A stretch of 60,455 nt of DNA, filler included. It is 5 parts of 5 records of this genome, joined end to end, with 100 filler letters (N's around TTAATTAATTAA, not from the genome) between each part and the next. Parts side by side here need not be neighbours in the genome. Positions count along the whole stretch, not along the records: positions 49,957 to 60,455 come from SRR2962707_3340; 4 more parts are not named here. One strand, given 5' to 3'. Shown here one piece after another: positions 4,427 to 59,861 of the stretch. The notes under the pieces are model-generated. The model worked only from the letters and a program-made list of their open reading frames with translations, made no database searches and was not told the DNA's origin. How positions within the stretch are numbered: the first letter of the stretch is position 1; every line of letters starts with the position of its first letter. The translations under genes and the position numbers were made by a program.

Positions 4427-6079
4427 TTAAGCTTCGATCCCATGATGGGAATTGGGGCCGCCATCGTCGCCCGTCGGTGCCAGGCGGACAAAGCGCGATC
4501 CATCCTGAAACAGGATGTGCCCCTTATATCCCGATATTTGCAAAGCTTCGCGGAAGATGCCGCGAATATCGTCACGGTTATGCGATTGCAACGGGTTTTC
4601 CGTGCGAATGATCAGATCAAATTTGCTGTCTTCGCCTTTGACCAATCCATCAAGTTGGGTATGGCCGACGGCGCTAAAGGACAGATCAAGCAGGAAGCGG
4701 GTTCCCTGATCATCTTTTTTGTCGGGATCATCTTCACGATCACCGTGGCGCCAGCCCAGTTGAAGCTGTTCGATTTTATCACCCATATTGAATGGCATGG
4801 CCATCACACGCCAGCCATCCGGGCGATCATCACTTGCCATGGCGCGCAACTGGGCAAAGTCGCCCTCAAGTCGTTTCAGCCCGCCACCATCAATATCTGA
4901 CAAACTTGAAAGACTGTTCGCAGCACGATCCCCCATCCAGCTACGGATACCAGTGCCCTTGCCTGTCATCGCGGCAAAAAAGAACATCATCGTTGTGGTC
5001 AGTTTCGGGCCAGCCTGCGGCAGGTTGTTCAAAAGCGACATGGCAGCACCCGGATCATGCTGCTGAAGTGCTGTGACGGCCGTTTGCAGGCTGCTCCAGT
5101 CGCGTGACAGGGCGGCATTCTGACCGCGCGCAATCAGTTCTGCCTCGGTCATTGGCATGGAGGTCGTAACCTTGCCACTGCCCGATGCATCAACGCTAAA
5201 GGATAAGGTTGCCCCGACAGGGGCCGGTACGGGCAGTTTGATCCCGACAATTCCGGCCGATGTGCGCAAAGCCGTAAAGCCCTGAGGCAACATGCGGGCT
5301 TCGGCGCTATCAGATGGCAAAACGGTTCCGCTTAGCAACAAGGCGGGACTTGGTTGCCCGGCAAGTTGGGGTGTCCCAGTCGCAGGTGTCGCCCCTGCTG
5401 TCGCCATACCAACCGCGCCGCCGGCAGCAGCCCCACCGCCAGCCCCACCAGCAACCAAACCACCTGCGCCGCCCGCTGCACCGCCACCCGCAGCCGCATT
5501 CAGGACATTGGCGGCCTGCAGTGGCGTTACGGTGCCTTGGCCAAGGAAGATGACTTGTGTCTGACTTCCTGCGGGCAATTGCGTGCCATTGGGCATGGTC
5601 AGGATCGACGTGGTCATGGCGCTAAAGGTTTGACCGGGTGTTAGGGTGGTTGCGGAGATGTTGCCAGCTGAAAGACCACCTGATGCACCGGGGGTCAGCG
5701 TTTGCGGCAGAAGTTGCAGGCGCATACCATCAGCAGGATTTCCGCCTGCTTGCCCTGTGCCGGGATTGGTTGTTGGAATGCGGGCCCAGATCAGATCGCC
5801 AAGATTACCCGGAAGTTGCGCAGGTACCTTTACGGTGACCTGCCCAAGGGCGGTGGCCAATGTAAGCTGATTGCCAGACTGCGATTGAATTGACGCCTGC
5901 AAAAGGGTCTCAACAGGCAGCTTGGCCAAGGCCGCAGCGATCTGCGGCGATGTTGCATTGGTAACGGTGGCGGTCACCTGTGCCGGGACCGATCCCTGGC
6001 CTGATTGTGCCGATGCGCCCGCCGAGGCCTGACCACCGACCGAAGGACCGGGTGATATGGCTTGTGGCGGGAGCGTCAT
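4427..6079 (-). CDS. FliK-like flagellar hook-length-control-type protein (long G/A/P/T-rich N-terminus, compact C-terminal domain)
   Basis: Low-complexity N-terminus. C-terminal 'RFLLDLSFSAVGHTQLDGLV...FDLIIRT' resembles FliK_C/T3S4. Lies 7 bp downstream of flhG. Confidence 0.5.
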   Translation of the reverse strand: MTLPPQAISPGPSVGGQASAGASAQSGQGSVPAQVTATVTNATSPQIAAALAKLPVETLLQASIQSQSGNQLTLATALGQVTVKVPAQLPGNLGDLIWARIPTTNPGTGQAGGNPADGMRLQLLPQTLTPGASGGLSAGNISATTLTPGQTFSAMTTSILTMPNGTQLPAGSQTQVIFLGQGTVTPLQAANVLNAAAGGGAAGGAGGLVAGGAGGGAAAGGAVGMATAGATPATGTPQLAGQPSPALLLSGTVLPSDSAEARMLPQGFTALRTSAGIVGIKLPVPAPVGATLSFSVDASGSGKVTTSMPMTEAELIARGQNAALSRDWSSLQTAVTALQQHDPGAAMSLLNNLPQAGPKLTTTMMFFFAAMTGKGTGIRSWMGDRAANSLSSLSDIDGGGLKRLEGDFAQLRAMASDDRPDGWRVMAMPFNMGDKIEQLQLGWRHGDREDDPDKKDDQGTRFLLDLSFSAVGHTQLDGLVKGEDSKFDLIIRTENPLQSHNRDDIRGIFREALQISGYKGHILFQDGSRFVRLAPTGDDGGPNSHHGIEA

Positions 6080-6086
6080 GGCACCA

Positions 6087-6761
6087 TTACTCCTCGAGAA
6101 GGATTTGTGCGATGGCCTCTATATCGTGGGCGGCATCGCAATTTGGATGACGGGTCAAAAGCGGTGTTTGATTGCGAATGCATTCCGAAACACGCGCATC
6201 AGCCCGAATGACACCCAGAAGCGGTGGCGAAATCTTAAGGAAGCCCTCGCAGGCTTTCAGAAGTTTACTATAGATCGCCTGACCTTCTTTTTTATCCTTG
6301 GCCATGTTGATGACGACCCGAATATCGGTTTTCGGGCGGGCCATGTGCGTGATCTTGATAAAGGCATAAGCATCGGTCAAAGAGGTCGGATCACCATTGG
6401 TGATGACAATCACTGTATTGGCAAGTCCGGTCATTTGACGGACACCCTGATCAACACCAGCGCCCAGATCGATCAGAACCTTGTCATAGGCTTTGCCGGT
6501 CTGAAGCAAATCATCAGACAGGGCCTGAAGCCGGGAGGCCGGAAGATTGGCAAGGCTGCCTGATCCACTGCGACCGGCAACAATGTCAAAACCGCCATCG
6601 GGGAAATGGGTGACGGCATCTTTCAGGCCGATACGGCCAGCAATGACACCGCCCAGATCATGTTTGGGCATCAGACCGAGCTGAATATCGATGTTTGCCA
6701 GACCAAGATCGCCATCAAACAGAAGCGCCTTTTGCCCTTCGAGAACCATGGCATGGGTCAG
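6087..6761 (-). CDS. flhG: MinD/ParA-family ATPase FlhG/FleN (5'-partial; P-loop lies beyond the contig edge)
   Basis: 'DGDLGLANIDIQLG', 'IDLGAG', 'DPTSLTDAYAFIK', 'VINMA'. Confidence 0.85.
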   Translation of the reverse strand: MTHAMVLEGQKALLFDGDLGLANIDIQLGLMPKHDLGGVIAGRIGLKDAVTHFPDGGFDIVAGRSGSGSLANLPASRLQALSDDLLQTGKAYDKVLIDLGAGVDQGVRQMTGLANTVIVITNGDPTSLTDAYAFIKITHMARPKTDIRVVINMAKDKKEGQAIYSKLLKACEGFLKISPPLLGVIRADARVSECIRNQTPLLTRHPNCDAAHDIEAIAQILLEE

Positions 6762-6762
6762 G

Positions 6763-6862
6763 NNNNNNNNNNNNNNNNNNNNNNNNNNNNNNNNNNNNNN
6801 NNNNNNTTAATTAATTAANNNNNNNNNNNNNNNNNNNNNNNNNNNNNNNNNNNNNNNNNNNN
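6763..6862. other. Artificial contig linker (N44-TTAATTAATTAA-N44)
   Basis: Exactly 100 nt with stops in all frames. Composition and gene style change across it. Confidence 0.98.
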
Positions 6863-6886: not shown

Positions 6887-9800
6887 ATCATCTTCTTCGA
6901 GCCTCCTCCTCCTTCCCCTCTCGTCGTCCTCCTCCTCGTCCTTCTTGTTCTTCTTTGCTTGCTTCTTCTACGTCCTTCTCTTCGTCCAGCCAGTCGCGCC
7001 TCAAGCCATCAAGTCGTTCGAGTCTACGACCGGGGAATGGGCGTGGGTGTCCGGCTCAGGCACACGCCCAGCGGCGAACTACGGCTTCTGCGATGCCGGC
7101 GAGCTGCCCTGCGACTCAGCCGCTGACCTGCAGCCTGGAGGCCGTCTGTTCAGCGCGTCCTGGCAAGCGGTGACGTCAGCAACTGGGTCCGAGTCGCTGA
7201 CTCCCTCGGTGGACCTGTTCGTTTTCGGCGGGCTCAGCCAGGACGAGCAGCTGAACAACGACCTGTGGCGGTTCAACTACTCGCAGTGGGTGTGGGTCGG
7301 CGGGCAAAAGAGCTCGCAGCTCAACAACCCCAGCACTGACAAGTGGCCTGGGGATAGACTCGGGTCAGCCTCGTGGCTTCCACGCACTGCCAACCCTGGG
7401 GGCACGGGGGATGCCGTCTACGTGCTCGTGTTTGGGGGCTGGGGAATGGCGCGTAACTTTTCGGGGGAGTTTGTGGCGCTCGACGAGATGTGGGAGTTCT
7501 CGACAAGCCGACCCACGATGAGCTCCGCGACCGCGCGGCAGCTCAACCTCTCCTCTTCCGCGCCGCCCGCTCGCGCGTTCCCAGCGTATTGGTCTTTACC
7601 CCATGGCACTTCCGTCGATGTAATGACCCACTGGATGTTTGGTGGCTGGAACCCCAATGCAGGGTTCAACAGTGGCGAATCGTTCAACGACTTGTGGTCG
7701 TTCACGTTCGATCCGCTTCAGAATGACTCGACGATTCAATGGACCCAGCACGTTGCAGGGAGCAATAGCAATGACGACGACTGGCCAAGTGCCCGCCACG
7801 CTCCTGCAGTGTGGACCACTCCCTCGAAAGACAACTCTGGCTTGCTCACTTTCCTATTTGGTGGTTCTCGCTATTCCAACCCAAACCAGGCGAACCAGCC
7901 TATTATTCCTCTCAACGACCTCTGGCGCCTTGAGATGGCTCTCAGCGGAGGTAGTGCGCTGAATGGTTCAAGTTCGTGGGTGATCACGTGGACCTGCCTT
8001 CAGGCACTGCACAGTGACACGCAGTACAAACCTCCTCCTGTACATTTGCATGTCCCAACCACAACACACAGCCCACAGGGACGCGCTCACGCAGCCACGT
8101 GGGTGCTTGTTGATGCGGCCAATATAAGCGAAGTTCCGCATCCGTACTTCTATATGATGGGAGGTGCTGTTCAAACCGAAGAAAATGTGGCTGGAAATTA
8201 CGAAGCTCGCAATGACATGTGAGTTGCCCTGTTGCGGTCGACGAACGACTCAAACGAAGCACCTGCGCTCCGTTGTTTTTGTGTTTGTTTCTTGTGCATT
8301 CTTTTTGTGATTCTGAAAGCACTAGCAAGCACAAGTGTAAGCACCCGAACAGGGTTGGAATCACATTGACGACGCGAGGTCAATCCGCTTTCTTTTGGTT
8401 TTCAGGTGGCGTCTTAACATTACGCACGACAACACAGTTGTTTGGCAGTGGGTCGCTGGAAACCTGCAGTCCCCCGTGTCCGGAACGTACAACGTTCTGT
8501 CAGAGTTTGCGGCAAGTACTTACCCTGGATCCCGGTATGGTGCTGCACCGTTTTCGCTTCGCAAACTGACAAACAATACCCACGGAAGTGCAACGGCAAA
8601 GAACTGGACGATTGGTATTTTTGGTGGAGGGGGGTGAGTTTGGCGCTGTGTTCTTTCATCCACTCCCATTTGAGCAACACAAGGTCGAAACTGCGTCGCT
8701 CATGCAGCCTAATGAAGACGTGAACCAATGGGCGCTTGCTTGACCTTGCTGCATGACGACAGATGTGGCAGTACATGTGCGGACGACGAAATGGTACTAA
8801 ACGACGTGTGGGAAGGTCGTGTGACGCTTAAAGTACGTTTCCACGCCGACCTTGTCTTGTTTCTTTGACTTTGGTCACCATCGCATCATCATTCAGTGCA
8901 TGCAATAATTATGCATCTCATTCAACTTGCGTCGCTTCCTTGGCTGTTTCTGCATTATGCATATGCTGCGCCATAGGTGCAGCTTCTCGCTACGTGGCTT
9001 TGGGTGTTGATAACGTGCATAGCTCTGTTGGCTATCATCATTCCCTCCACAGTTTATATTCGGTTCGTCGCAGCCCTCACTCCGTGGAGAACGGCTATTT
9101 CAGACTCTATTTCGCGCAAGGCCAATCCAAAACCAATTTACCATTGTGTCTGTTCCTTTTTAAAACCAGCCGCAAGCGACGCCAGCTGGTCCGCGATCGG
9201 CGGTCTGAGAACGAAGCGCGCGCGCGACTAAGTATGCACAAGTTTCAAGACCACTTAATTGACTTTGAGGATCTTATATTTGGAGCACGGGTTGGCACAG
9301 GAGCAGCTGGCACCGTGTACAAGGCAAAGTTGAGGCGCCACACTGATGTGGCAGTCAAATCTGTGTCCATCCCGGTTCGTGGAAATGTTTTGCGCAATCA
9401 AAGGCTTTGCAGACGCATCGTTGCGGGTCGACTATTAACAACGAAATAGCCATGCTCCCAAATGCATGGTTGATCTTAGTACCGCTGCTTCCAACTTCTC
9501 ATTTTTTTGCAGGCGTGGGCAGCTGCCAGTATTACTATGGAAGAGCTTCTGTCAGAAGTGCAGATATTGAGGAGAATCCCTCATGAGCACATTGTTCGCT
9601 TGTATGGTCTTGCGCTGGAATGGCAAGAGCATGCTGCAACCGACACCGCATCGGTTGTTTCCCGCACTAGCTCTGTTGTGTCCAAAGCCACAACCACCAC
9701 CATAGACTCCCAAGACGATCTATATCATTCTACGGATGCCTTACAGCGAGCCATGACGGACCTCAAAGCTGTTCACATCGTGATGGAATTGTGCTCGTTT

Positions 9801-14307: not shown

Positions 14308-14407
14308 NNNNNNNNNNNNNNNNNNNNNNNNNNNNNNNNNNNNNNNNNNNNTTAATTAATTAANNNNNNNNNNNNNNNNNNNNNNNNNNNNNNNNNNNNN
14401 NNNNNNN
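14308..14407. other. Artificial contig linker
   Basis: Same N44-TTAATTAATTAA-N44 spacer. Confidence 0.98.
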
Positions 14408-40459: not shown

Positions 40460-40559
40460 NNNNNNNNNNNNNNNNNNNNNNNNNNNNNNNNNNNNNNNNN
40501 NNNTTAATTAATTAANNNNNNNNNNNNNNNNNNNNNNNNNNNNNNNNNNNNNNNNNNNN
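40460..40559. other. Artificial contig linker
   Basis: Same 100-nt spacer. Confidence 0.98.
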
Positions 40560-49856: not shown

Positions 49857-49956
49857 NNNNNNNNNNNNNNNNNNNNNNNNNNNNNNNNNNNNNNNNNNNN
49901 TTAATTAATTAANNNNNNNNNNNNNNNNNNNNNNNNNNNNNNNNNNNNNNNNNNNN
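49857..49956. other. Artificial contig linker
   Basis: Same 100-nt spacer. Confidence 0.98.
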
Positions 49957-50222
49957 TCCTTTTCATTGGCATCAAAGAAAACGGCGCTGCGTTTTTTACG
50001 CCCAAGCGTTGCCCCGTAGACCCGACCATTCCGGTCAAGTTCTTTTGGAAGGTAGATCGATATTTCCGGTATTTTGCCGATGGCCTGGAGAACGGCTGCC
50101 TCGCGTTCTTCTACCGTCTCCGCCCGGGCACCCAAACCGGGCCCGGTTAAAAACGGCAAAAAGACAACCAACACAATCGTCAGACGCGACAGTAAACCCA
50201 CAGCCCAGCAACCCCGGCACAC
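49957..50222 (-). CDS. Putative exported protein, 3'-truncated by contig end; start ambiguous
   Basis: Hydrophobic 'LTIVLVVFLPFL' and an 'ARA|ET' cleavage site. Frame is open to the contig edge. Confidence 0.5.
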
Positions 50223-50499: not shown

Positions 50500-53400
50500 T
50501 TAGTCATAGACTGTCATGGAGCCATCCGGGCGGGCGACCCAGATATGACCATTGGAACCAATCGACACAGTTTGTGCCCTGGTTTCATCGACGCGCTTCC
50601 AGTTTTTGTCCTTGGCGTTCCATTTATACAAGACGTCTCCGTTCGGGCCACCGAGGTGCCAGACCGAACCGTCAAGCCCAACCGCGACGTCACTGGCAGA
50701 TCCCGGAATCTCGTTCCAGCGGTTATTTGCGAACTGATAGATTTCGCCATTTCGGCCAACAGACCAGACTTCCCCATCAGCACCGGCCGCAACTTTGGAC
50801 AAATTCCCCGGCACTTTGATCCAGCCACTACCGCCCATGCGATAAATGGTGCCATTCCCGCCAACATGCCATTGAGTTCCGGCATCATCGACGGCAATGT
50901 CCGAAGCCCAGCCCGAAATCTGGGTTTTCTTACCGAGGGAATCGATGTTCCACATTTTGCCATCCGTGGTCAGGATAAAGGCATTGTTTTTCAAACGACC
51001 GACTTCGACCTGGGCGACCCCGGATGCAAGGACCTTCTTCCAACCCAATTGCCCTTTCGGCCGGATATACAGCGAACCACCGCCTCCGACATGCCAAACA
51101 TCACCACTTTGGCCGATACTAACCTGACTTGCCCATCCGGACACATCACGCCAATTTTTGGGACCGGACATCACGGCGTATGTGACCGTTGGGTCATCGA
51201 CCTCGATATGTGTGAACGTGATCCCGTTATCCTGAACCACGGTTTTGGTCGTATCCTTGAGCATACCGGAATCCGCCATCTGGGGTCGCGGCGTTGATTT
51301 ATGACGATACACAATGATCGCGTCATCCGGGCGCAACGCCCAAAGTGTCCCCGCAGAACCGGCATCAACCTGACTGACCGTGCCGCCACGCCCTTCTTTC
51401 CAATCGCCGTTATAGGAAAGGCGGAAAACCTTATCATCAAGGCTGGTAATCCAGACGGCACCATCGGGACTAACCGCCACATCCTGGGCTTTCCGGCCAA
51501 AGTCTTTCCATTGGTCATTCAGAAAATAATGCAGCTTGTCATTGGTATCGATGACCCACAACATACCGCCCGGCCCTGCCGAAATCTTTTTGGCTTTGGG
51601 GCCATTGATACGCTGCCATCTGAAATCATCCGGGCCGGAAACATAAAGGCTGTTGCTGCCGCCGATATGCCATTTACGCCCATCCGGGGCAACATCCACC
51701 GCATGCCCAGTCCCGGGTACATTGCGCCAGTTGTTGCCGTTATAGGCCTTCATTGCCCCACTTTCCATCAGGGCAAAGGCCGATTTTCTGTCAGGCATTG
51801 CCGCGATATCGACAAAGGTATCGCCGCCGCCGATTGCCGACCATTTATTGTCATTTGCCGCATCGGCCCAGTAGACCTTACCACCACCGATATGCCAAAC
51901 ATCACCAGACGGACCGACGGAAATGGCCGTCGCCTGGCCTTCGAAATTATGCCACTGGCCTTCGTTATAAACAAAATACAGCGGATCCGCACTGAAGCGG
52001 GTGTCCTTGTAATGTGCGCTTGCCGCAGCTTCGATCTTTTTCAGATCACTTGCCGAAGGTCGCACTTCGTTGCTGGAGGCCAAGGCCCAGTATGAATAAA
52101 CCTTGGCGGCCTCATCCTTGTTTTGCAGCCAAACCTTCAGGCTTGGTTTATAGGATTTGGCATGTTCAAGTGCGCGCATCAGTGCTGGACGCGCATCAGC
52201 CTTGGCCAGGTTTTTGTTCAACTCTGCTTCAAAGATGGCTAATGCGATTTCAATCACGATTTGCGGCCCGCTCACCGCAAGCATCTTGGTGATTAGTTTC
52301 TTCGACACCTTAAAGGCCGTCTTTGCCGCAACACGTGCGGCATCATCGGCCAGTTCACCCATTTCTTGACCAACCTTTGTTGCGACCTTGCCGACGTCAT
52401 CACTTGATCCAAGGATATTATCGACACTGTCTCCTGCCTCTTGCCCAACGCGCTTCATTTTATCGTCGAGGTTGGTTATTTCATCAAATTGGTCGTAGTG
52501 TCCGTCTGTCCTGTTGGGGAAAACTTTGTAGATCATTTGATCGGCAACGCTGCCATCATCAAGTGGAACAAGAGCCGTTGAAAACATGCCGAGTGTCGGA
52601 ACTGCCGCCACTGTATTGACCAGAGCGGCACGGTTGGTCACCTGCTCAAAATTCGGCGGCACAGGTAACAAATCACTGAACAGGAAACGCATATCCGAAC
52701 GCCCTGCTTTTGTGTTAGCTTCCTGCCTGTTCTTGAGCTTAATAGTCTGGGCCGCGTGCCAGACGTCATAGGCTTTTATGGCCTCTGTCGCCAGATAGAC
52801 GCGATAGCCGTTAGCAAAAGTTTCGATTTCCTTGATCAGGCGCCCTTCCGGACTGCTGGCAGATACACGACCACTTTCTACAGCGGAAATTACGTGGTTA
52901 AGCACCGCATAACGCAATGCCAGGCTTTCTTCGGGAAACTGTGCAATTTCCTGCCAAAGCGCTTCGACGGAGCGTGTCCCGTCCGTTCCAACAGCACGGC
53001 CCATGCTAACAGCAATATGTTCGAGTTCCGTGCGCTCGTCGATCAATTTCAGGACGACTTCGGCCGCACCGTCCATCTGCATGAAGCCTTTGCCAGCATA
53101 AGGCGCCATTTCCCATTCAATCGCAGGGGCAAGGCAACCGCGCGGCGAATCAACGGATTCCTTTGAACGGGTATAACCGGCCGGGCAGCTATAACAACTA
53201 CCAAAGTTCTTTGGGTCCCAGAATGCGTTGTCGCCATATTGCTTGCACCCGGCTTCGTCTTTTTTCTCAGCCGATGCCGTTTCAAAAATCGGGCGCCCAC
53301 AAGCCTGATTACTTTTTACCGAATTGATCGTGCGAACATATCCGTCCGGGCATGACCAGCAGGTGCCGCCATCAATCAGATCATAAACAGTATTATCGCC

Positions 53401-54003
53401 ACCACATTCTGCACCTTTGAATTCCGCCTTGCGCCAGCTAAACTGCAAAAAGCCCGTCACACGTTCACAGGCTTTGTCGGAATGTACCGGATCAAATATG
53501 GTCCGGTTATAGCCCGACGGGCAGCGCCAGCAAGTGCCCCCATTATACATGTCAAAGAAGCTTCCTGAGGGGCACTGCGAGACGCCACTAAGACGTTGTG
53601 CCGGTTTTGCATCACTGAAGATATCTTTGTCCGTGACCTTGTGGCAGGCCGTGTCAGTGGTGATATGGTCGCCTGATCGGGAATAACCAGACGGGCAGGA
53701 CCAACATGCTTCAAGATCATAAAACTGTCCCGAAGGGCAGCTTATACCCGGTTTTCCTTCATACTTTGCCGGCTGGCCCTCACAGCTTTCCTGTAGGTTG
53801 CCGTTTTTATCAAGCCCCCCACAAGTGGTTTCTGCCCTTGCCGGGGAACTGGCAAACATCATTCCGGCCAAACCAAGTATCACAACGACCAGAGCAAGCA
53901 TGAAATGCCGCCCGGAATAGCTGACAGAGTTTCTTGTTCTTGTTTGAGGTATACGTTGGTGCGCCATATCCACAGAAATGGACGCGTTGTTTGTGTTGCT
54001 CAT
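50500..54003 (-). CDS. Large exported protein: long signal region, 4 Cys-rich repeats, helical core, 12 tectonin-like repeats (two 6-bladed propellers)
   Basis: RBS GGAG/AAGGA, 'SPARA|ETT'. Four C-x10-16-C(W/Y)xCPxGYxR...C repeats. Twelve W...G....(I/V)xVG.DG.VW repeats. Confidence 0.85.
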   Translation of the reverse strand: MSNTNNASISVDMAHQRIPQTRTRNSVSYSGRHFMLALVVVILGLAGMMFASSPARAETTCGGLDKNGNLQESCEGQPAKYEGKPGISCPSGQFYDLEACWSCPSGYSRSGDHITTDTACHKVTDKDIFSDAKPAQRLSGVSQCPSGSFFDMYNGGTCWRCPSGYNRTIFDPVHSDKACERVTGFLQFSWRKAEFKGAECGGDNTVYDLIDGGTCWSCPDGYVRTINSVKSNQACGRPIFETASAEKKDEAGCKQYGDNAFWDPKNFGSCYSCPAGYTRSKESVDSPRGCLAPAIEWEMAPYAGKGFMQMDGAAEVVLKLIDERTELEHIAVSMGRAVGTDGTRSVEALWQEIAQFPEESLALRYAVLNHVISAVESGRVSASSPEGRLIKEIETFANGYRVYLATEAIKAYDVWHAAQTIKLKNRQEANTKAGRSDMRFLFSDLLPVPPNFEQVTNRAALVNTVAAVPTLGMFSTALVPLDDGSVADQMIYKVFPNRTDGHYDQFDEITNLDDKMKRVGQEAGDSVDNILGSSDDVGKVATKVGQEMGELADDAARVAAKTAFKVSKKLITKMLAVSGPQIVIEIALAIFEAELNKNLAKADARPALMRALEHAKSYKPSLKVWLQNKDEAAKVYSYWALASSNEVRPSASDLKKIEAAASAHYKDTRFSADPLYFVYNEGQWHNFEGQATAISVGPSGDVWHIGGGKVYWADAANDNKWSAIGGGDTFVDIAAMPDRKSAFALMESGAMKAYNGNNWRNVPGTGHAVDVAPDGRKWHIGGSNSLYVSGPDDFRWQRINGPKAKKISAGPGGMLWVIDTNDKLHYFLNDQWKDFGRKAQDVAVSPDGAVWITSLDDKVFRLSYNGDWKEGRGGTVSQVDAGSAGTLWALRPDDAIIVYRHKSTPRPQMADSGMLKDTTKTVVQDNGITFTHIEVDDPTVTYAVMSGPKNWRDVSGWASQVSIGQSGDVWHVGGGGSLYIRPKGQLGWKKVLASGVAQVEVGRLKNNAFILTTDGKMWNIDSLGKKTQISGWASDIAVDDAGTQWHVGGNGTIYRMGGSGWIKVPGNLSKVAAGADGEVWSVGRNGEIYQFANNRWNEIPGSASDVAVGLDGSVWHLGGPNGDVLYKWNAKDKNWKRVDETRAQTVSIGSNGHIWVARPDGSMTVYD

Positions 54004-54013
54004 GTCCTTGCTC

Positions 54014-56620
54014 CTAATCGCGTGCCCGTTTGACGATTGGCGTGTTGTCCACGCTCAGCCACAGACGCCCGTCTTCTTCGACGTCGAAATTCTCAGCTCT
54101 GGAATTGTTGATGAGATCAAAGCTCTTGTTGGTCGCATTCCAGCGGTAGATGTCGTTATCCACACTGCGAATGAAGACCTCGCCGTTTCTCGACACCCGG
54201 ATTGAAACGGCCTTTTGTCCCTGACGCGGACGCTTTTCAAATTCTGATCCGGTCCATTGCCGGACATAAAGATTGCGATCTACAATCCACACATCATCGC
54301 CCGGCCCGACCGAGACGTCGTAAAGCGAATTGAAATCGTCAAACCGCGCAAAGCGGTTGCTGCCCGCGTCTTTGGAATACAGCCAGTAATCGCCGCCGGT
54401 ATAAAAGATGGCATAGACCGTATCGTTCGGCGCAACCGATACGCCTTCCGGCGTCAGGCCACTAACGGTGAATTCCTGCTGGCTGTTATCGCGTTCTCTG
54501 AAAAGACCAACCGACGGCGACGTGGTATAAGCCCAGATATCGCCATTGCTGGCGATATCGTAATCCTGAATGTTGGCGTTCTGATTGCCAAAACCGGTGG
54601 ACTCGCTTTCAAACCGTTTGCGGCGCTCGTCATAGACAAACATGTCCCCGGATTGCCCTTGACCACCGGAGTAGGAATAACCGTAGACATCCCCGTCATT
54701 GCCGATGGAAAGCTTGATATCGGCACCTGATGGTGCCGCGTCTGTATTGATGGTCTCAAAGCGAATGTTCTTGGTAAATGTGAAGCCTTCAACATCGTTT
54801 GACGTGATGGATGTTGTGTCCCCACTGCCATCCATCTCTTCAGATGTGCGTGCTGCAATACGGAGATCGTCACTTTCATCACGTTCAAAGAATTGACTTG
54901 AAAGAACCGATCCGTCCTCGGTAACCACCCATGGATAGCCTTGCGGTCCGGCGGCCACCTGTTTGGGCGTTCTGGCTGCAATGCGGACGGTTTCAAATTC
55001 GCCTGTGTCTGAATTGTATCGGCGCAGAAAGTTGTCTGGCGTCACAATCCAGACAGTGCCATCAGAACCAATCGCAAGGCTGGATGCCTTTTGGCTAACG
55101 TTCTGGCAGCCTGTTTCACCGCAATATAGCAGAAAGCCATTTTCAAGAATGGTCCACGGGCTGCCATCAGGCATCACTGCTACAGCGACACCCCGGCCAT
55201 CAATAGGCGTAAACCCCATGCCGTCGCCATCGATACGGTAAAGACGGCCTTGCGCATTCACCGTGACGACATCACCATTTGCCGCAATCGCTATGTCTGC
55301 AGCCGTTTGCCCGGTAACCTGTTGCCAATCGCTTCCGGTATGACGAAACACCCGACCAAGTGCAGAAACGCCCCATGGGTTACCATCCGGATCCACTGCC
55401 AGACGCACCAGGCTGCCTGGAAAATCGTTAAACCGCCGCCGGTCATTTGACCAACGCAGGATTTCGCCGCCACGAAGAGCAAAAACGCTACCATCCCGGC
55501 CAATGGCCAAGCGGTCTGCGACGTCGCGTGTATCAGTAAAATTCAAATTGCCCGAATAGGTGCGACTGGCTTGATCACTTGTCGGATCATCAGCAACAGG
55601 ACGTTCCGTTCTGTCGTCCCGTCCGGTGTTACCATTGGACGCAATTTCTGTTTCCGAGGGTGGTGGTGCAAGCTGTTCTGCGCGGGATTGTTCTGCTTGG
55701 TTTGTTGGCGGAGTTGCGTCGTCGGCTTTCGGACTATTTGATGAAACTTCATCTGCCTTGATCTCATCTGCCTTGATGTCATCGGGTTTGGCATCCGGTG
55801 CGGTGAGTTCTTCTGCACCGGTTGGTTCATCATCCTGTTCAAGCCCCGAGGAAACTGCGATCCGGACCTTCGCCAGAATACGGTTGTCTTGTAACACCAC
55901 CCAAGGCGCCCCTGAACGGGTCACGGCAATTTCCAGTGCCTTTGTCACACCGCGCAGTGCGAACCATTGCTGGTCACGCTGCCGCCAGAGCATCACACGG
56001 CCATCTGGATGGACCTTTGCAACGCGTTGATTATCCCCGGCAGCAATATCGCGTGCTCGGCCCGGCAAGGCATGCCACCCGTCATCATCGCGCATCCTGA
56101 TTTCATTGGTTGGTGTTACCGCCCATAACCGTCCGTCCGGGTCCAATGCCAAACGTTTTGCAACCCCCTCGACCGGCTCCCAGCTATGGCGCAGATCAAG
56201 CCAGCGATGAATGGAACCATCGGCCTTTGCAATGTAGATTTCACCACTTGCATTGCCTGCAACATCAACAACATCGCTGTCTTTGCGTTCCCACCACAGA
56301 CCGTTATAGCGATACACATCCCCGTCAGCATCAATCACCCAAGGTCGGCGCTCTGCGGCACCGGTGATACGGGCAAAGGACCCTGACATCGTGCGCCAGC
56401 TTTCTTCATGCGGATCCCATCTAAGCGGCGTGCCATTGGTGGAAATGGCATAAGCCTCGCCAATCGCGGTTATGGATATATCCTGCCCCTGACCGGGCAA
56501 AGAGAACCAGACCCCGTCATCAAGAACCTTCGTCGCATGGCCTACCCCCGCCATGAAAAGCAGGATTACAGTGACCAAAACGGCGAAACCCGAACGATGT
56601 GAAAGTGCTTTCATGATCAA
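54014..56620 (-). CDS. Exported tectonin-repeat protein, about 18 blades (three 6-bladed propellers) with acidic linkers; ATG start possibly 56614
   Basis: Signal peptide ending 'GHA|TK'. Repeats such as 'WEPVEGVAKRLALDPDGRLWAV' and 'FPGSLVRLAVDPDGNPWGV'. Confidence 0.85.
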   Translation of the reverse strand: MIMKALSHRSGFAVLVTVILLFMAGVGHATKVLDDGVWFSLPGQGQDISITAIGEAYAISTNGTPLRWDPHEESWRTMSGSFARITGAAERRPWVIDADGDVYRYNGLWWERKDSDVVDVAGNASGEIYIAKADGSIHRWLDLRHSWEPVEGVAKRLALDPDGRLWAVTPTNEIRMRDDDGWHALPGRARDIAAGDNQRVAKVHPDGRVMLWRQRDQQWFALRGVTKALEIAVTRSGAPWVVLQDNRILAKVRIAVSSGLEQDDEPTGAEELTAPDAKPDDIKADEIKADEVSSNSPKADDATPPTNQAEQSRAEQLAPPPSETEIASNGNTGRDDRTERPVADDPTSDQASRTYSGNLNFTDTRDVADRLAIGRDGSVFALRGGEILRWSNDRRRFNDFPGSLVRLAVDPDGNPWGVSALGRVFRHTGSDWQQVTGQTAADIAIAANGDVVTVNAQGRLYRIDGDGMGFTPIDGRGVAVAVMPDGSPWTILENGFLLYCGETGCQNVSQKASSLAIGSDGTVWIVTPDNFLRRYNSDTGEFETVRIAARTPKQVAAGPQGYPWVVTEDGSVLSSQFFERDESDDLRIAARTSEEMDGSGDTTSITSNDVEGFTFTKNIRFETINTDAAPSGADIKLSIGNDGDVYGYSYSGGQGQSGDMFVYDERRKRFESESTGFGNQNANIQDYDIASNGDIWAYTTSPSVGLFRERDNSQQEFTVSGLTPEGVSVAPNDTVYAIFYTGGDYWLYSKDAGSNRFARFDDFNSLYDVSVGPGDDVWIVDRNLYVRQWTGSEFEKRPRQGQKAVSIRVSRNGEVFIRSVDNDIYRWNATNKSFDLINNSRAENFDVEEDGRLWLSVDNTPIVKRARD

Positions 56621-56643: not shown

Positions 56644-58563
56644 TCAGGACTCAGTCAGCAGATGTTTGCGAAGAGTCGTCAGGTTTTCTTCAACGCTGAT
56701 GTCATCGAAAGATGATTTGATCTCCAAATCGCCCATGCGGAATTCGTCGAAGAAGGCTTTGCCCTGCAGCTTATCGAGAATGCTTTCGAAGTTTGGGCGG
56801 GCCGTGAACCAATCGCCGTGCCGCCGTTCCAATCGCGAAATATCCTGCTCGAGTGGAGAAAGCTGACCAATAATGCGTTCGCGGTCTTCTGGTGACTGGC
56901 GCACATAGTGCGGCCGGCGCGGAGTCAATAAAATCAGGATAGATTTTTCGAAATTGCGCTCTGTTCGTTCGGAAAACAAATAGCTTAGTATCGGCATATC
57001 CTTGAGAACCGGCACCCCGTCCGAAACATTAGAAGTTTCGCGTTCGCTCAGCCCACCAAGGATAAGTGTTTCACCGAACTTCATGGTAACGGTCGAGTTT
57101 ACGTTTGTTTTCGTCGTATCAAGGCGGAACTCAAAGACAACTGAATTGGAAGGATCGGTCAAAAAGGTGCGTTCCGCCACCACGTGCAGTCTGATTTCAT
57201 CGTTCGCCAAGACCTCCGGTGTTACGGCAAGTTTCACACCGACTTCTTTTTGAACGGAAACGCTGTCCCCGTTGCCGCCCGAAACGGCTGCAGCGAGAAT
57301 TTCTGTTCCCGAAAAGAATTCCGATGTTTTCCCGGTCTGGGCGACCAGACTTGGTTTGGCCAATATCTGATTATCCGAGTTCAGCGAATTGGCGATATTT
57401 AGCGAATAGTTCACAGCCGGGATGCTGATCTGGGACGTGATGGTTTTGGTACTCTCCTCCAGCCCTGTACCAAGGAAATCCCGCGTTTTGGTGCGGGAAA
57501 TCCCGGCAGCTGGTGCGCCAGTCAACGGATTACCGAATTGTAGTTGCAACCCGTTCAGAAGGTTCACACCACGCGACTCACGCATGTCTTCCTGTGTCCC
57601 GATCAGGACGACATCCACGACCACCATTGATGCATCATCCTGACTGGCAACAACCTCATCGCCATATGGATCTGCAGGCGCATCCCCATAGGCATCATAA
57701 GCGTCTGATGAGCCATCCCCATAAGGATCACCATAGGGATCACTTTGATAGGTAGTTCCGCCGCCAGCATAGGGATCATAGCCGCCTTGGGCCAAAATTA
57801 CCTTGGCATCGCTTTCATAAAACGACCGCCAGTTATCAACGCGCCGACGCACAAAAGCCAAATCACTGCGATCTGGTGCCACATTGGCATATTGCGCCAT
57901 CAAGGCATCAACCCCTGCACGGTCATCCATCGCCGCAAGCGCCATCATCCGGGCCTTGAGGATTTCAGGACTGGTGCTCGCGTCCGGCGTAATTTTTGCC
58001 AATCGGGAAAGGGCGGCGTCAGCCGTTTTCGCATCATGGGCAAAGTATGAGGCAACCGCCAGATTATAGAGAACATCCGGACTGTCAGACCGGTACATCG
58101 CGACATAAGAGAAATGGGTCTGCGCTTCCTCATAGCGGCGCTGGCTTTTGTACAAAATTCCCAGTTGATAATGCGCCGCAAGATTGCCGGAACCAAACTT
58201 CAGCGACTGACGGTAGCCTTGTTCAGCCATAATATATTTGGCCGTATCTCCGTCATCTCCCAGCTGATGATAAACGTAGCCGTTCAGAAACTGCAGATGC
58301 GGATTGGTGATATCAAGTTTCAGCGCAAGATTGGCGGCATGCGATGCCATATCGAGATCTCCACGCTCAATCGCATTGAACGCTTCGGTTACAAGGAGCT
58401 GTACCTTGTTGCCTTCTTTTAACGTATCACCTTGTGCTGACGCCCCGAAATCACTTGAGAATATGCTTGATGTTCCAGGCCCCTCAAGCGTCTGGCACCC
58501 CCCAATCGCAAGCAAAGCTGAAAAGGCCATGACCTGACATAGCCGTAACGATAGATTTTGCAT
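56644..58563 (-). CDS. Lipoprotein with N-terminal TPRs fused to a secretin (type II/III secretion outer-membrane pore) domain
   Basis: Lipobox 'IGGC' (Cys23), TPR helices at aa ~55-245. Secretin motifs 'ILAKPSLVAQTGKTSEFFSG', 'EVGVKLAVTP', 'GETLILGGL', 'GVPVLKDMPILSYLF', 'ILILLTP'. Confidence 0.9.
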   Translation of the reverse strand: MQNLSLRLCQVMAFSALLAIGGCQTLEGPGTSSIFSSDFGASAQGDTLKEGNKVQLLVTEAFNAIERGDLDMASHAANLALKLDITNPHLQFLNGYVYHQLGDDGDTAKYIMAEQGYRQSLKFGSGNLAAHYQLGILYKSQRRYEEAQTHFSYVAMYRSDSPDVLYNLAVASYFAHDAKTADAALSRLAKITPDASTSPEILKARMMALAAMDDRAGVDALMAQYANVAPDRSDLAFVRRRVDNWRSFYESDAKVILAQGGYDPYAGGGTTYQSDPYGDPYGDGSSDAYDAYGDAPADPYGDEVVASQDDASMVVVDVVLIGTQEDMRESRGVNLLNGLQLQFGNPLTGAPAAGISRTKTRDFLGTGLEESTKTITSQISIPAVNYSLNIANSLNSDNQILAKPSLVAQTGKTSEFFSGTEILAAAVSGGNGDSVSVQKEVGVKLAVTPEVLANDEIRLHVVAERTFLTDPSNSVVFEFRLDTTKTNVNSTVTMKFGETLILGGLSERETSNVSDGVPVLKDMPILSYLFSERTERNFEKSILILLTPRRPHYVRQSPEDRERIIGQLSPLEQDISRLERRHGDWFTARPNFESILDKLQGKAFFDEFRMGDLEIKSSFDDISVEENLTTLRKHLLTES

Positions 58564-58796
58564 CCTGCCCCGTTCAATCTGTCCCCAATGCGACCATGCG
58601 CATCCTTGTCCGAGCCCACATTACATACCTTTAGATGCATGCCTTGTGCAGACGCGGACATATTTTCCACAGGCTAGCGAAGCACCATCTCGGGTGACAG
58701 AGACCTGATGTATGGGGAAGGGACGAAGTTGTATGAAGACGGGTAAGACATACAAATCCGCCCAGACGACCGGGATGCTGGAAAGCAGGGAGTTGG

Positions 58797-59861
58797 TCAG
58801 GTGTTCTTCACAAGTCGCACGACACCTGACCTGACCTTTCTGGCGTATTCTGCTGGGGGCACGCCATATTTCTGATTAAACGCGGTCGAAAAATTGGTTG
58901 AATGGTTATAGCCAACTTCCCAAGCAACCTCTTTGATAGCCATGTCCGTACGCTCCAGCAGTATCTTGGCCTTTTTCATACGGACATCGCGCAGCACTTC
59001 AAAAACGGTATCTGAATAAAGCTCGCGGAACGCCTGATTAAGACGCTTTTCTGTTGTCCCAAGTTTTACGGCCAGGTCAGAGAGGCACGGCGGTTCTTGC
59101 AAATTGTCTTGCAGCATCTGATAGGCGCGCTGCGCTTTATCGATATCTGCGCGCTTTACCAATAGCTGACCATCATCTGCGTCTGCGGTCGCGCGCAAAG
59201 ATTGCTCGATTAGCGTCAGATACAAAAGCCCGATGCCTTCCATCTTGATTTGCTGGAGCGATGGCGACGTCTCTATGCTCAGATTCTGGATCAATGTTTC
59301 GCGCATGGCGTGTGTCACAGAAAAACTGATCGGCTCAATACTTTCAACATCAGGCTGCAAAAGAGGTTGCAACGATTCAGGAACGCTATTGTCAAAGTAT
59401 CGCTGGAAGACATCTGGTGTTAGGCTCAAACCCAAGGCCTGAACATTTTGTCCGCCGGGCAACGTGAAGGACGTATCCTTTCCGTCATGCACAAACAAAT
59501 GGCCCTGAACCGATGAAAAAAGAATTTCCGAACCATCTTCTGGCCGGATCATCGAATATTCCCCCTCAAGCGCGACCATTGCGATGATGAGCTTTTTACC
59601 GGATATGCTGCCCGCCGTGATGACCATGTCCTGATCCACGGTAAGGCGCTGGTAGTCGACATTACCACCGTTGGACAATGAGATACGTTCGTGATGACGG
59701 TGAATAACCTGATCGGAAATATCCCTGTCTGGGCCAACGACAATCTGGTCTTTCTCGCCCGATGCAAGTTCAAGTTCCATCTTGTATAGCGTTGAGCCCG
59801 AACGACCACCTTGTCTCAGATCGGATATGGTGCATTCTGCATCATGACGCCCCGCCATCAA
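58797..59861 (-). CDS. AraC-family transcriptional regulator (PchR/YbtA-like)
   Basis: C-terminal double HTH 'PPCLSDLAVKLGTTEKRLNQAFRELY...RMKKAKILL...KEVAWEVGYNHSTNFSTAF'. Confidence 0.92.
   Translation of the reverse strand: MMAGRHDAECTISDLRQGGRSGSTLYKMELELASGEKDQIVVGPDRDISDQVIHRHHERISLSNGGNVDYQRLTVDQDMVITAGSISGKKLIIAMVALEGEYSMIRPEDGSEILFSSVQGHLFVHDGKDTSFTLPGGQNVQALGLSLTPDVFQRYFDNSVPESLQPLLQPDVESIEPISFSVTHAMRETLIQNLSIETSPSLQQIKMEGIGLLYLTLIEQSLRATADADDGQLLVKRADIDKAQRAYQMLQDNLQEPPCLSDLAVKLGTTEKRLNQAFRELYSDTVFEVLRDVRMKKAKILLERTDMAIKEVAWEVGYNHSTNFSTAFNQKYGVPPAEYARKVRSGVVRLVKNT

Follow-up and report, generated by a model that had tools for sequence, protein, structure and literature searches.

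A predicted lipobox-bearing secretin with a built-in TPR domain, no N domains and lectin-like neighbours in Thalassospira and related bacteria

Secretins form the outer-membrane end of envelope-spanning machines, namely the secretion systems of types II and III (T2SS and T3SS), type IV pili, Tad and filamentous phage, and their periplasmic N domains, together with pilotins, are central to assembly, alignment and opening. HxcQ of P. aeruginosa is part of a complete T2SS (Hxc) and keeps its periplasmic N domains. In the layout of AlgK/AlgE, BcsC, PgaA and PelB, periplasmic tetratricopeptide repeats (TPRs; AlgK being itself a TPR lipoprotein) are joined or paired with an outer-membrane channel. 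HxcQ is described in the excerpted text of PMC3230066 as a lipidated secretin that is thought to reach the outer membrane via Lol without a separate pilotin. For RcpA-TadD and PilQ-PilF/PilW, PMC10499894 reports that the secretin cannot assemble unless a TPR lipoprotein of PilF-like fold is present; such pilotins sit outside the barrel and bind the secretin C-terminus, as in TadD-RcpA, where the groove of TadD binds the last four residues of RcpA. Here we describe an open reading frame (ORF) at positions 56644..58563 (minus strand; 639 amino acids (aa) by translation) of a 60,455-nucleotide stretch of DNA, hereafter the window, which consists of five contigs joined end to end. The best overall explanation, to which we assign a probability of roughly 0.55, is that its product belongs to a distinct, widespread and undescribed family, the TPR-secretins, and acts as a self-piloted, stand-alone 'liposecretin' by which the adjacent lectin-like proteins are released or displayed.

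The protein opens with a signal peptide whose lipobox cysteine is Cys23 and continues with a TPR domain, a disordered linker, a secretin core and a helical tail, and every element of the description given by an earlier sequence-only reading of this ORF is confirmed. The five regions are as follows.

58495..58563, minus strand: signal peptide and lipobox (aa 1-23, I-G-G-C23, Gln at +2), read from the translation.
57799..58422, minus strand: TPR domain (aa 48-255, 13 helices), set off from the lipobox by a short tether and putatively pilotin-like from AlphaFold2, VIA-align and NCBIfam.
57637..57798, minus strand: disordered D/P/Y/G-rich linker (aa 256-309), defined by the predicted local distance difference test (pLDDT) and by length variation.
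56908..57636, minus strand: secretin core (aa 310-552) with outer and inner barrel, gates and the loop motif VPxLxDxPxLxxLF, defined by Pfam, NCBIfam and AlphaFold2.
56647..56907, minus strand: conserved helical C-terminal tail (aa 553-639), S-domain-like, with an EFRxGD motif, defined by AlphaFold2 and alignment.

By profile and by predicted fold, the ORF product is a true secretin with the full-extent double-barrel fold. Pfam Secretin (PF00263) matches residues 395-549 with 106.8 bits against a cut-off of 27.5, positions 338-588 of the 600 in the GspD profile TIGR02517 match residues 314-549, and ExeD (6i1x) matches residues 301-548 in a sequence alignment in which the conserved core motifs are visible. 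In the AlphaFold2 model used here, which was built on a 132-sequence alignment (a first model, from 21 sequences, had a poor core with a mean pLDDT of 55.6), the core reaches pLDDT values of 70-96. Structural alignment of this model by VIA-align places residues 310-552/556 on PilQ 6ve2 (Z 15.3) and on the A. caldus secretin 9wfd (Z 14.4), and superposes residues 310-552 on residues 173-403 of f1 pIV (7ofh) with a Z of 14.3. In pIV the secretin domain spans residues 175-405 and N3 spans 108-172, according to the excerpted text of PMC8563730; the overlap therefore equates model residues 310-552 with the secretin domain without N3.

The core begins at residues 310-313, with 'MVVVDVVLIG' at 312, and neither the profile nor the structure alignments cover an N3, in agreement with the earlier claim that the sequence leaves no room for one. 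No Pfam match to Secretin_N at E<=0.1 was obtained in the ORF product, and no N0-N3 or other periplasmic domain was found by Pfam, by AlphaFold2 or by structural alignment, the last of which starts at the secretin domain. Structure prediction had been proposed as the check for a cryptic N3, and none appears in the AlphaFold2 model. Domain searches had likewise been expected to return Secretin and TPR but not Secretin_N; the expectation held for both secretin families, while the Pfam TPR matches (at residues 66-194) were all sub-threshold. The premise that canonical secretins possess an N3 ring proved too strong, as P. aeruginosa RcpA lacks N3 according to PMC10499894. The only segment between the TPR domain and the core is the linker, of which residues 256-308 have a pLDDT below 50 in both AlphaFold2 models, bearing out its description as disordered; in 132 relatives it is low in complexity, rich in S/G/A/P/D/E and 8-134 aa long (median 51). 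Because of this disorder, composition and length range the linker cannot be a conserved folded domain, and a cryptic N3 within it was excluded on the same grounds.

The N-terminus, MQNLSLRLCQVMAFSALLAIGGC, was read from the translation as a charged n-region and a hydrophobic core followed by the lipobox I-G-G-C with Cys23. The lipobox column (consensus L-x-G-C-Q-T) is present in 18 of 21 aligned homologues, the remaining three being N-terminally short; a simple lipobox pattern matches 181 of 235 relatives with the full architecture. An N-terminal lipobox on the secretin polypeptide itself is what defines a liposecretin, lipidation being predicted here from the sequence.

The suggestion of TPR-like helices is borne out by the AlphaFold2 model, in which 13 helices lie within residues 47-252 at pLDDT 93-98. 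Among NCBIfam models this part is closest to PilW (TIGR02521; E 3e-10, 40 bits, below the 154-bit cut-off), and its predicted fold aligns by VIA-align with PilW 2vq2 (Z 15.7) and with PilF 2fi7 (Z 14.8) and 2ho1 (Z 14.6), although generic TPR proteins reach equal or higher scores. At the other end of the protein, the 87-residue tail is predicted to form helices at 558-567, 570-581, 590-598, 602-605 and 622-638 (pLDDT about 71-92), which, with its conservation, upholds the earlier description of a helical tail; no Pfam family covers residues 553-639. The EFRxGD motif occupies residues 607-612, of which F608, R609, G611 and D612 are each conserved to 90% or more across 132 sequences. In the region aligned to residues 626-639, the distant relatives mostly finish with the aromatic residues '...FLYY', '...FLYF' or '...FLFF', and the Thalassospira-type clade with '...R-L-L-x-x'; the aromatic C-terminus could be a ligand for a pilotin groove or a barrel-assembly signal. 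Several TPR structures (p67phox, for example) align by VIA-align to model ranges from about 50 to 598-639, a weak hint in the predicted structure of contact between TPR domain and tail. A two-chain prediction of residues 48-262 with 551-639, run without an alignment, scored 0.28 against a mark of 0.34 and speaks neither for nor against such a contact. The TPR ring could surround the barrel on its outer side, where known pilotins sit, or lie below it, in line with the sequence-only reading. That reading's further suggestion, of TPRs that take the place of the periplasmic vestibule or that recruit cargo, is not demonstrated by these results, and the tail fits the picture of a pilotin outside the barrel at least as well.

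Full-length homologues reach E-values down to 0, and an exhaustive HMMER pass returned, at E<=1e-30, 425 clusters (50% identity); most matches among the top 150 clusters span the protein from the TPR region through the tail. Full-length relatives are 53-99% identical and common in Thalassospira, Magnetospira, Terasakiella, Sneathiella and other Rhodospirillales, and bear no database names beyond 'hypothetical', 'TPR repeat protein' or a generic secretin label. Conservation of the core is extreme, long stretches being invariant from genus to genus, and, judged from these sequences, the conservation among homologues is far beyond chance. A genome scan with two peptide patterns, which favours close relatives, identified 68 loci, including some in Beta-proteobacteria, Magnetococcales, and metagenome-assembled genomes (MAGs) of Desulfovibrionaceae and Methylophaga. 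The curated secretin models that were scored included PilQ, GspD, MshL, SctC and HofQ, with no RcpA model among them, and the window protein falls short of each: PilQ TIGR02515 gave 86 bits against a cut-off of 284.35 (genuine PilQs elsewhere score 350-540), GspD TIGR02517 gave 82 against 351.35 (genuine GspDs elsewhere score 444-625), and SctC, MshL and HofQ gave 43/238, 56/250 and 60/554 bits, respectively. A tree of core plus tail was built from 61 rows, comprising the window protein, 28 relatives and 32 secretins of other Pseudomonadota (classed by NCBIfam, except for three CpaC-like rows that are unclassified). All 29 family rows lie on one side of a long branch (Shimodaira-Hasegawa-like approximate likelihood ratio test, SH-aLRT, 99), apart from the 14 GspD, 15 PilQ and three CpaC-like rows, the last of which form a clade of their own; the phylogeny that had been proposed as a check thus yields a separate clade, which is nested in none of these groups. 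Among the titles and abstracts listed by literature searches, which did not extend to subscription-only papers, neither a TPR-secretin fusion nor a secretin-Tectonin cassette is described.

The genomes of related Thalassospira were searched for machines with which such a secretin might operate. PF00437, the GspE/PilB/CpaF-type ATPase family of T2SS, type IV pili, Tad and type IV secretion systems, is absent from five of eight Thalassospira genomes, and the same search was positive in 13 of 14 reference genomes used as a control. The other three genomes gave weak, partial matches (E 4e-16 to 7e-8, in ORFs of 343-384 aa), which are taken to be conjugation-type ATPases. PF00263 was checked in three of the eight, and all of its matches belong to the TPR-secretin family (three in T. 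australica and one each in Thalassospira sp. MCCC 1A01148 and the complete T. lucentensis Mv1 genome). Since PF00437 is absent from five of the eight genomes and all PF00263 matches in the three checked fall within the same family, the family appears to need neither a T2SS nor a type IV pilus or Tad machine; this independence is well supported in Thalassospira and fits the absence of any domain able to dock such a machine. With neither N0-N3 nor a type-IV-filament ATPase, the channel would have no link to any inner-membrane assembly of the T2SS, type IV pilus or Tad kind. Strong Tad-like ATPase matches were obtained in Magnetovibrio and in a Parvibaculaceae genome, in each case within ~3 kilobases (kb) of a second, CpaC-like secretin.

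The secretin gene is accompanied on the same strand by the following features.

58797..59861, minus strand: AraC-family transcription regulator of 354 aa, upstream of the secretin (Pfam HTH_18, E 7.7e-21).
58564..58796, minus strand: intergenic region of 233 base pairs (bp), the presumed promoter of the secretin operon, a role inferred from its sequence.
54014..56620, minus strand: F1b, 868 aa, with a Sec signal peptide, tandem Tectonin beta-propeller modules and an acidic disordered linker (Pfam Tectonin, E 1e-32).
50500..54003, minus strand: F1a, 1167 aa, with a signal peptide, Cys-rich N-terminal repeats, a helical middle and C-terminal Tectonin propellers (Pfam Tectonin, E 1.6e-36).

Gene order and spacing show that the secretin forms a predicted operon with two putatively Sec-exported, lectin-like proteins under an AraC-type regulator: in the window 23 bp separate the secretin stop from F1b and 10 bp separate F1b from F1a, and a purine-rich stretch, ACGGGGCAGG, directly precedes the secretin ATG. 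No RNA sequencing runs carrying the operon were found in a search. Tectonin 2 (5fsb) is matched in the PDB by both F1b (E 1.9e-16) and F1a (E 9.6e-22). Residues ~60-300 of F1a are Cys-rich, with about four repeats of the form 'C-P-S-G ... C-W-x-C-P-x-G-Y-x-R' ahead of the helical middle, and this Cys-rich and middle region gave no Pfam, PDB-sequence or usable ESM Atlas match.

The arrangement recurs widely. After ORF calling and clustering at all 68 loci, 62 yielded the secretin ORF (L023, L051, L052, L062, L064 and L066 did not). A same-strand F1 gene directly adjoins the secretin in 48 of these 62 loci (upstream in 34, downstream in 45 and on both sides in 31), and an AraC-type gene lies within three genes of it in 37. 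As a rule the genes run AraC, F1a, secretin, F1b; the window, like the two relatives most similar to it (93% and 83% identity), has AraC, secretin, F1b, F1a instead. Lectin folds found in the partners are Tectonin, Ricin-B and DM9: the F1 proteins of some species carry Ricin-B instead of Tectonin, including at the position orthologous to F1a, and one smaller neighbour protein combines DM9 with Ricin-B. A crude test for a signal peptide was positive for 87 of 94 F1 proteins. Among 121 sampled genomes of the order, the secretin (E<=1e-50) occurs in 28 and an F1b homologue (E<=1e-30) in 14, all of them among those 28, and in the matches listed 19 of 19 F1b rows abut a secretin match; as related genomes share genes, this co-occurrence is to be read as linkage and not as a probability. 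Wherever loci were matched, conservation was highest for the secretin and lowest for F1a, the fastest-evolving member, with identities for secretin, F1b and F1a of 59%, 43% and 31% in one pair (WIN-L020) and 70%, 51% and 35% in another, a ranking that fits a machine and its cargo.

More divergent loci were also recovered. A third T. australica paralogue (L112; G002:C23:1-16000) encodes a protein of 633 aa that is 34% identical to the window secretin and adjoins its own AraC gene; an ATP-binding cassette (ABC) ATPase pair separates it from an ORF ~3 kb away whose product exceeds 2900 aa and contains three Ricin-B domains and several of the discoidin (F5/8 type C) kind. Distant members of the family (L055, L060, L061, L063, L065, L067 and L068) are mostly from Beta-proteobacteria, L065 being a Magnetococcales MAG, and nearby at the same loci is a gene for an MscS-like channel that carries a fused periplasmic binding domain.

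In the mechanism that we propose, the protein, once exported by Sec, would be lipidated at Cys23 and carried to the outer membrane by Lol transport, as suggested by the lipobox and the Gln at +2 and as for HxcQ. Its N-terminal PilW/PilF/TadD-like TPR domain would act in cis as TPR pilotins do in trans, probably by gripping the conserved tail at the C-terminus, much as TadD binds the end of RcpA. The bare core, with its predicted fold, would then multimerise into a gated double-barrel channel, which would most likely give the F1 lectin-like proteins passage through the outer membrane or a place on its surface; the cargo role of the F1 proteins is inferred. A more specific version is only tentatively put forward: a minimal, two-step 'secretin-only' route without pseudopilus, ATPase or platform, in which the TPR domain or tail would recognise the Sec-exported lectin-like propellers in the periplasm and pass them through the outer membrane or mount them on it.

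A different role for the neighbours has to be weighed, in which the lectin-like proteins are structural accessories (the missing periplasmic ring, or a tether to peptidoglycan or glycan) of a channel that exports, for example, exopolysaccharide or slime. This would parallel the AlgK/AlgE, BcsC, PgaA and PelB exporters and the secretin 'nozzles' of gliding bacteria; synthase-dependent polysaccharide exporters have an N-terminal TPR region and a C-terminal outer-membrane channel, and this shared layout, the binding of glycans by lectin folds and the markedly better conservation of F1b than of F1a all speak in its favour. So do reports, in the excerpted text of PMC12475490, that secretins are necessary for slime secretion and that a pentapeptide-repeat protein serves as a lower ring or structural accessory on cyanobacterial PilQ, together with the signal-peptide-bearing pentapeptide-repeat gene that adjoins the secretin in beta-proteobacterial relatives. 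However, no glycosyltransferase, synthase or Wzx/Wzy-type family is present among the conserved neighbours in the 62 loci (22 of 951 neighbour ORFs having been scanned with Pfam), the lectin module of F1a swaps between Tectonin and Ricin-B from species to species, which is more typical of outward-facing proteins, and an 870-aa protein in 12-15 copies would make for a very large ring; on balance we consider an accessory role unlikely. It is very improbable that the protein is, apart from its fused pilotin, an ordinary secretin serving some T2SS, type IV pilus, Tad or phage system encoded elsewhere. Secretin genes can lie apart from their systems, as does XqhA of P. aeruginosa, and Tad-like ATPases do occur in Magnetovibrio and the Parvibaculaceae genome; those two ATPases, however, lie close to the CpaC-like secretin and not near the TPR-secretin, PF00437 is missing from five of the eight Thalassospira genomes, the protein offers no N0 or other N-domain for docking an inner-membrane platform, and the conserved synteny is instead with AraC and lectin genes. 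A role like that of phage pIV was also rejected on this conserved chromosomal synteny, although no search for inovirus genes was made. A classical secretin that lost N0-N3 would no longer function, which might suggest a decaying or non-functional remnant, yet this scarcely seems credible given that members are intact and full-length (with no internal stops among the matches listed), that the core is extremely conserved, that the family comprises 425 clusters and that paralogues are kept within one genome; a pseudogene was ruled out by the conservation.

Several observations weigh against the self-piloted liposecretin that we favour. Unrelated TPR proteins score Z 15-17 against the TPR domain, and MamA scores 17.2, so that the likeness of the predicted structure to pilotins appears no better than its likeness to generic TPR proteins. 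The lipobox pattern is absent from 43 of 115 distant representatives, some of which may be explained by wrong start calls. Half of the secretin-bearing genomes (14 of 28) have no F1b homologue at E<=1e-30, and the genes downstream of the distant members encode TAXI/NMT1_3 solute-binding, signal-peptide-bearing pentapeptide-repeat and SBP_bac_3 proteins; because of these pentapeptide-repeat neighbours and the PilQ report, the neighbours may be accessories and not cargo. No energy source or gate-opening device is obvious for large folded cargo of 868-1167 aa. With regard to the family as a clade, the relatives in the tree were hand-picked for spread (28 of the 269 fetched), and the tree was made by a 'quick' method, has long branches that meet and was built without SctC, pIV, MshL or type IVb secretins. 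Finally, the genome-wide absences rest on the genomes of related species and not on the window's own genome.

The secretin and its cassette occupy a single contig (49957-60455), the window being a chain of separate contigs divided by four N44-TTAATTAATTAA-N44 spacers (6763-6862, 14308-14407, 40460-40559 and 49857-49956). An ORF at 49905-50222 (minus strand), just downstream of the cassette, runs into a spacer and is therefore a gene cut off at the contig end. The pieces between 14408 and 49856 have ~31-42% GC and Bacteroidota-type genes (a BatA-D aerotolerance operon and a type IX secretion system C-terminal sorting domain) and the flanking pieces have ~48-56% GC; as GC and gene types differ between pieces, the assembly seems to mix at least two organisms. 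One genome (G001) contains 30% of the window's sampled 31-letter words and no secretin; it presumably matches the other contigs and was not used as kin. Other high-GC contigs encode a beta-propeller protein with Kelch repeats and a BcsQ-like ATPase, and hold several ORFs without a Pfam match, among features at 6945-8222 (plus strand) and 4427-6749 (minus strand).

A large conserved family with no N domain, with a built-in pilotin-like domain and in genomes without a matching machine breaks the usual picture of secretins and, if the proposal is true, a 'secretin-only' system would be widespread in marine Alphaproteobacteria and beyond. It raises the questions of how a gate opens without a piston or filament, what the smallest working secretin is and whether lectin-like proteins can be exported by a secretin alone; it would offer a natural single-chain pilotin-secretin for structural work and a candidate adhesin or lectin release system for marine Thalassospira. 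A secretin without N3 (P. aeruginosa RcpA) and a lipidated, self-piloting secretin (HxcQ) are already known. What appears undescribed is the combination: no N domain, a fused TPR lipoprotein domain, a long conserved tail, no partner machine in the genome and strict linkage to lectin-like genes.

Compared with known systems, the exopolysaccharide exporters have monomeric porin barrels and a synthase in the operon, whereas the TPR-secretin would be multimeric and has no synthase among its conserved neighbours. With pIV and PilQ it shares a secretin core of the same predicted fold and extent; pIV, GspD and PilQ, however, have N0 and N3 (and N1, N2 or AMIN) domains that couple them to inner-membrane partners (as set out in the excerpted text of PMC8563730), of which the TPR-secretin has none. 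Like HxcQ, it has an N-terminal lipobox, but it bears a TPR domain in place of the N domains, and no T2SS ATPase is encoded in five of eight Thalassospira genomes. RcpA, which operates together with CpaF/TadA, has retained a VirB9-like N-domain, whereas the TPR-secretin is devoid of a VirB9-like or BON-type N-domain, and its family is separate from the clade of the three CpaC-like rows, of which two lie near CpaF-like ATPases. RcpA-TadD resembles it in the absence of N3 from RcpA, in a TPR lipoprotein domain whose predicted fold is similar and in a conserved C-terminal tail; pilotin and secretin are separate proteins in that system and are fused here into one polypeptide.

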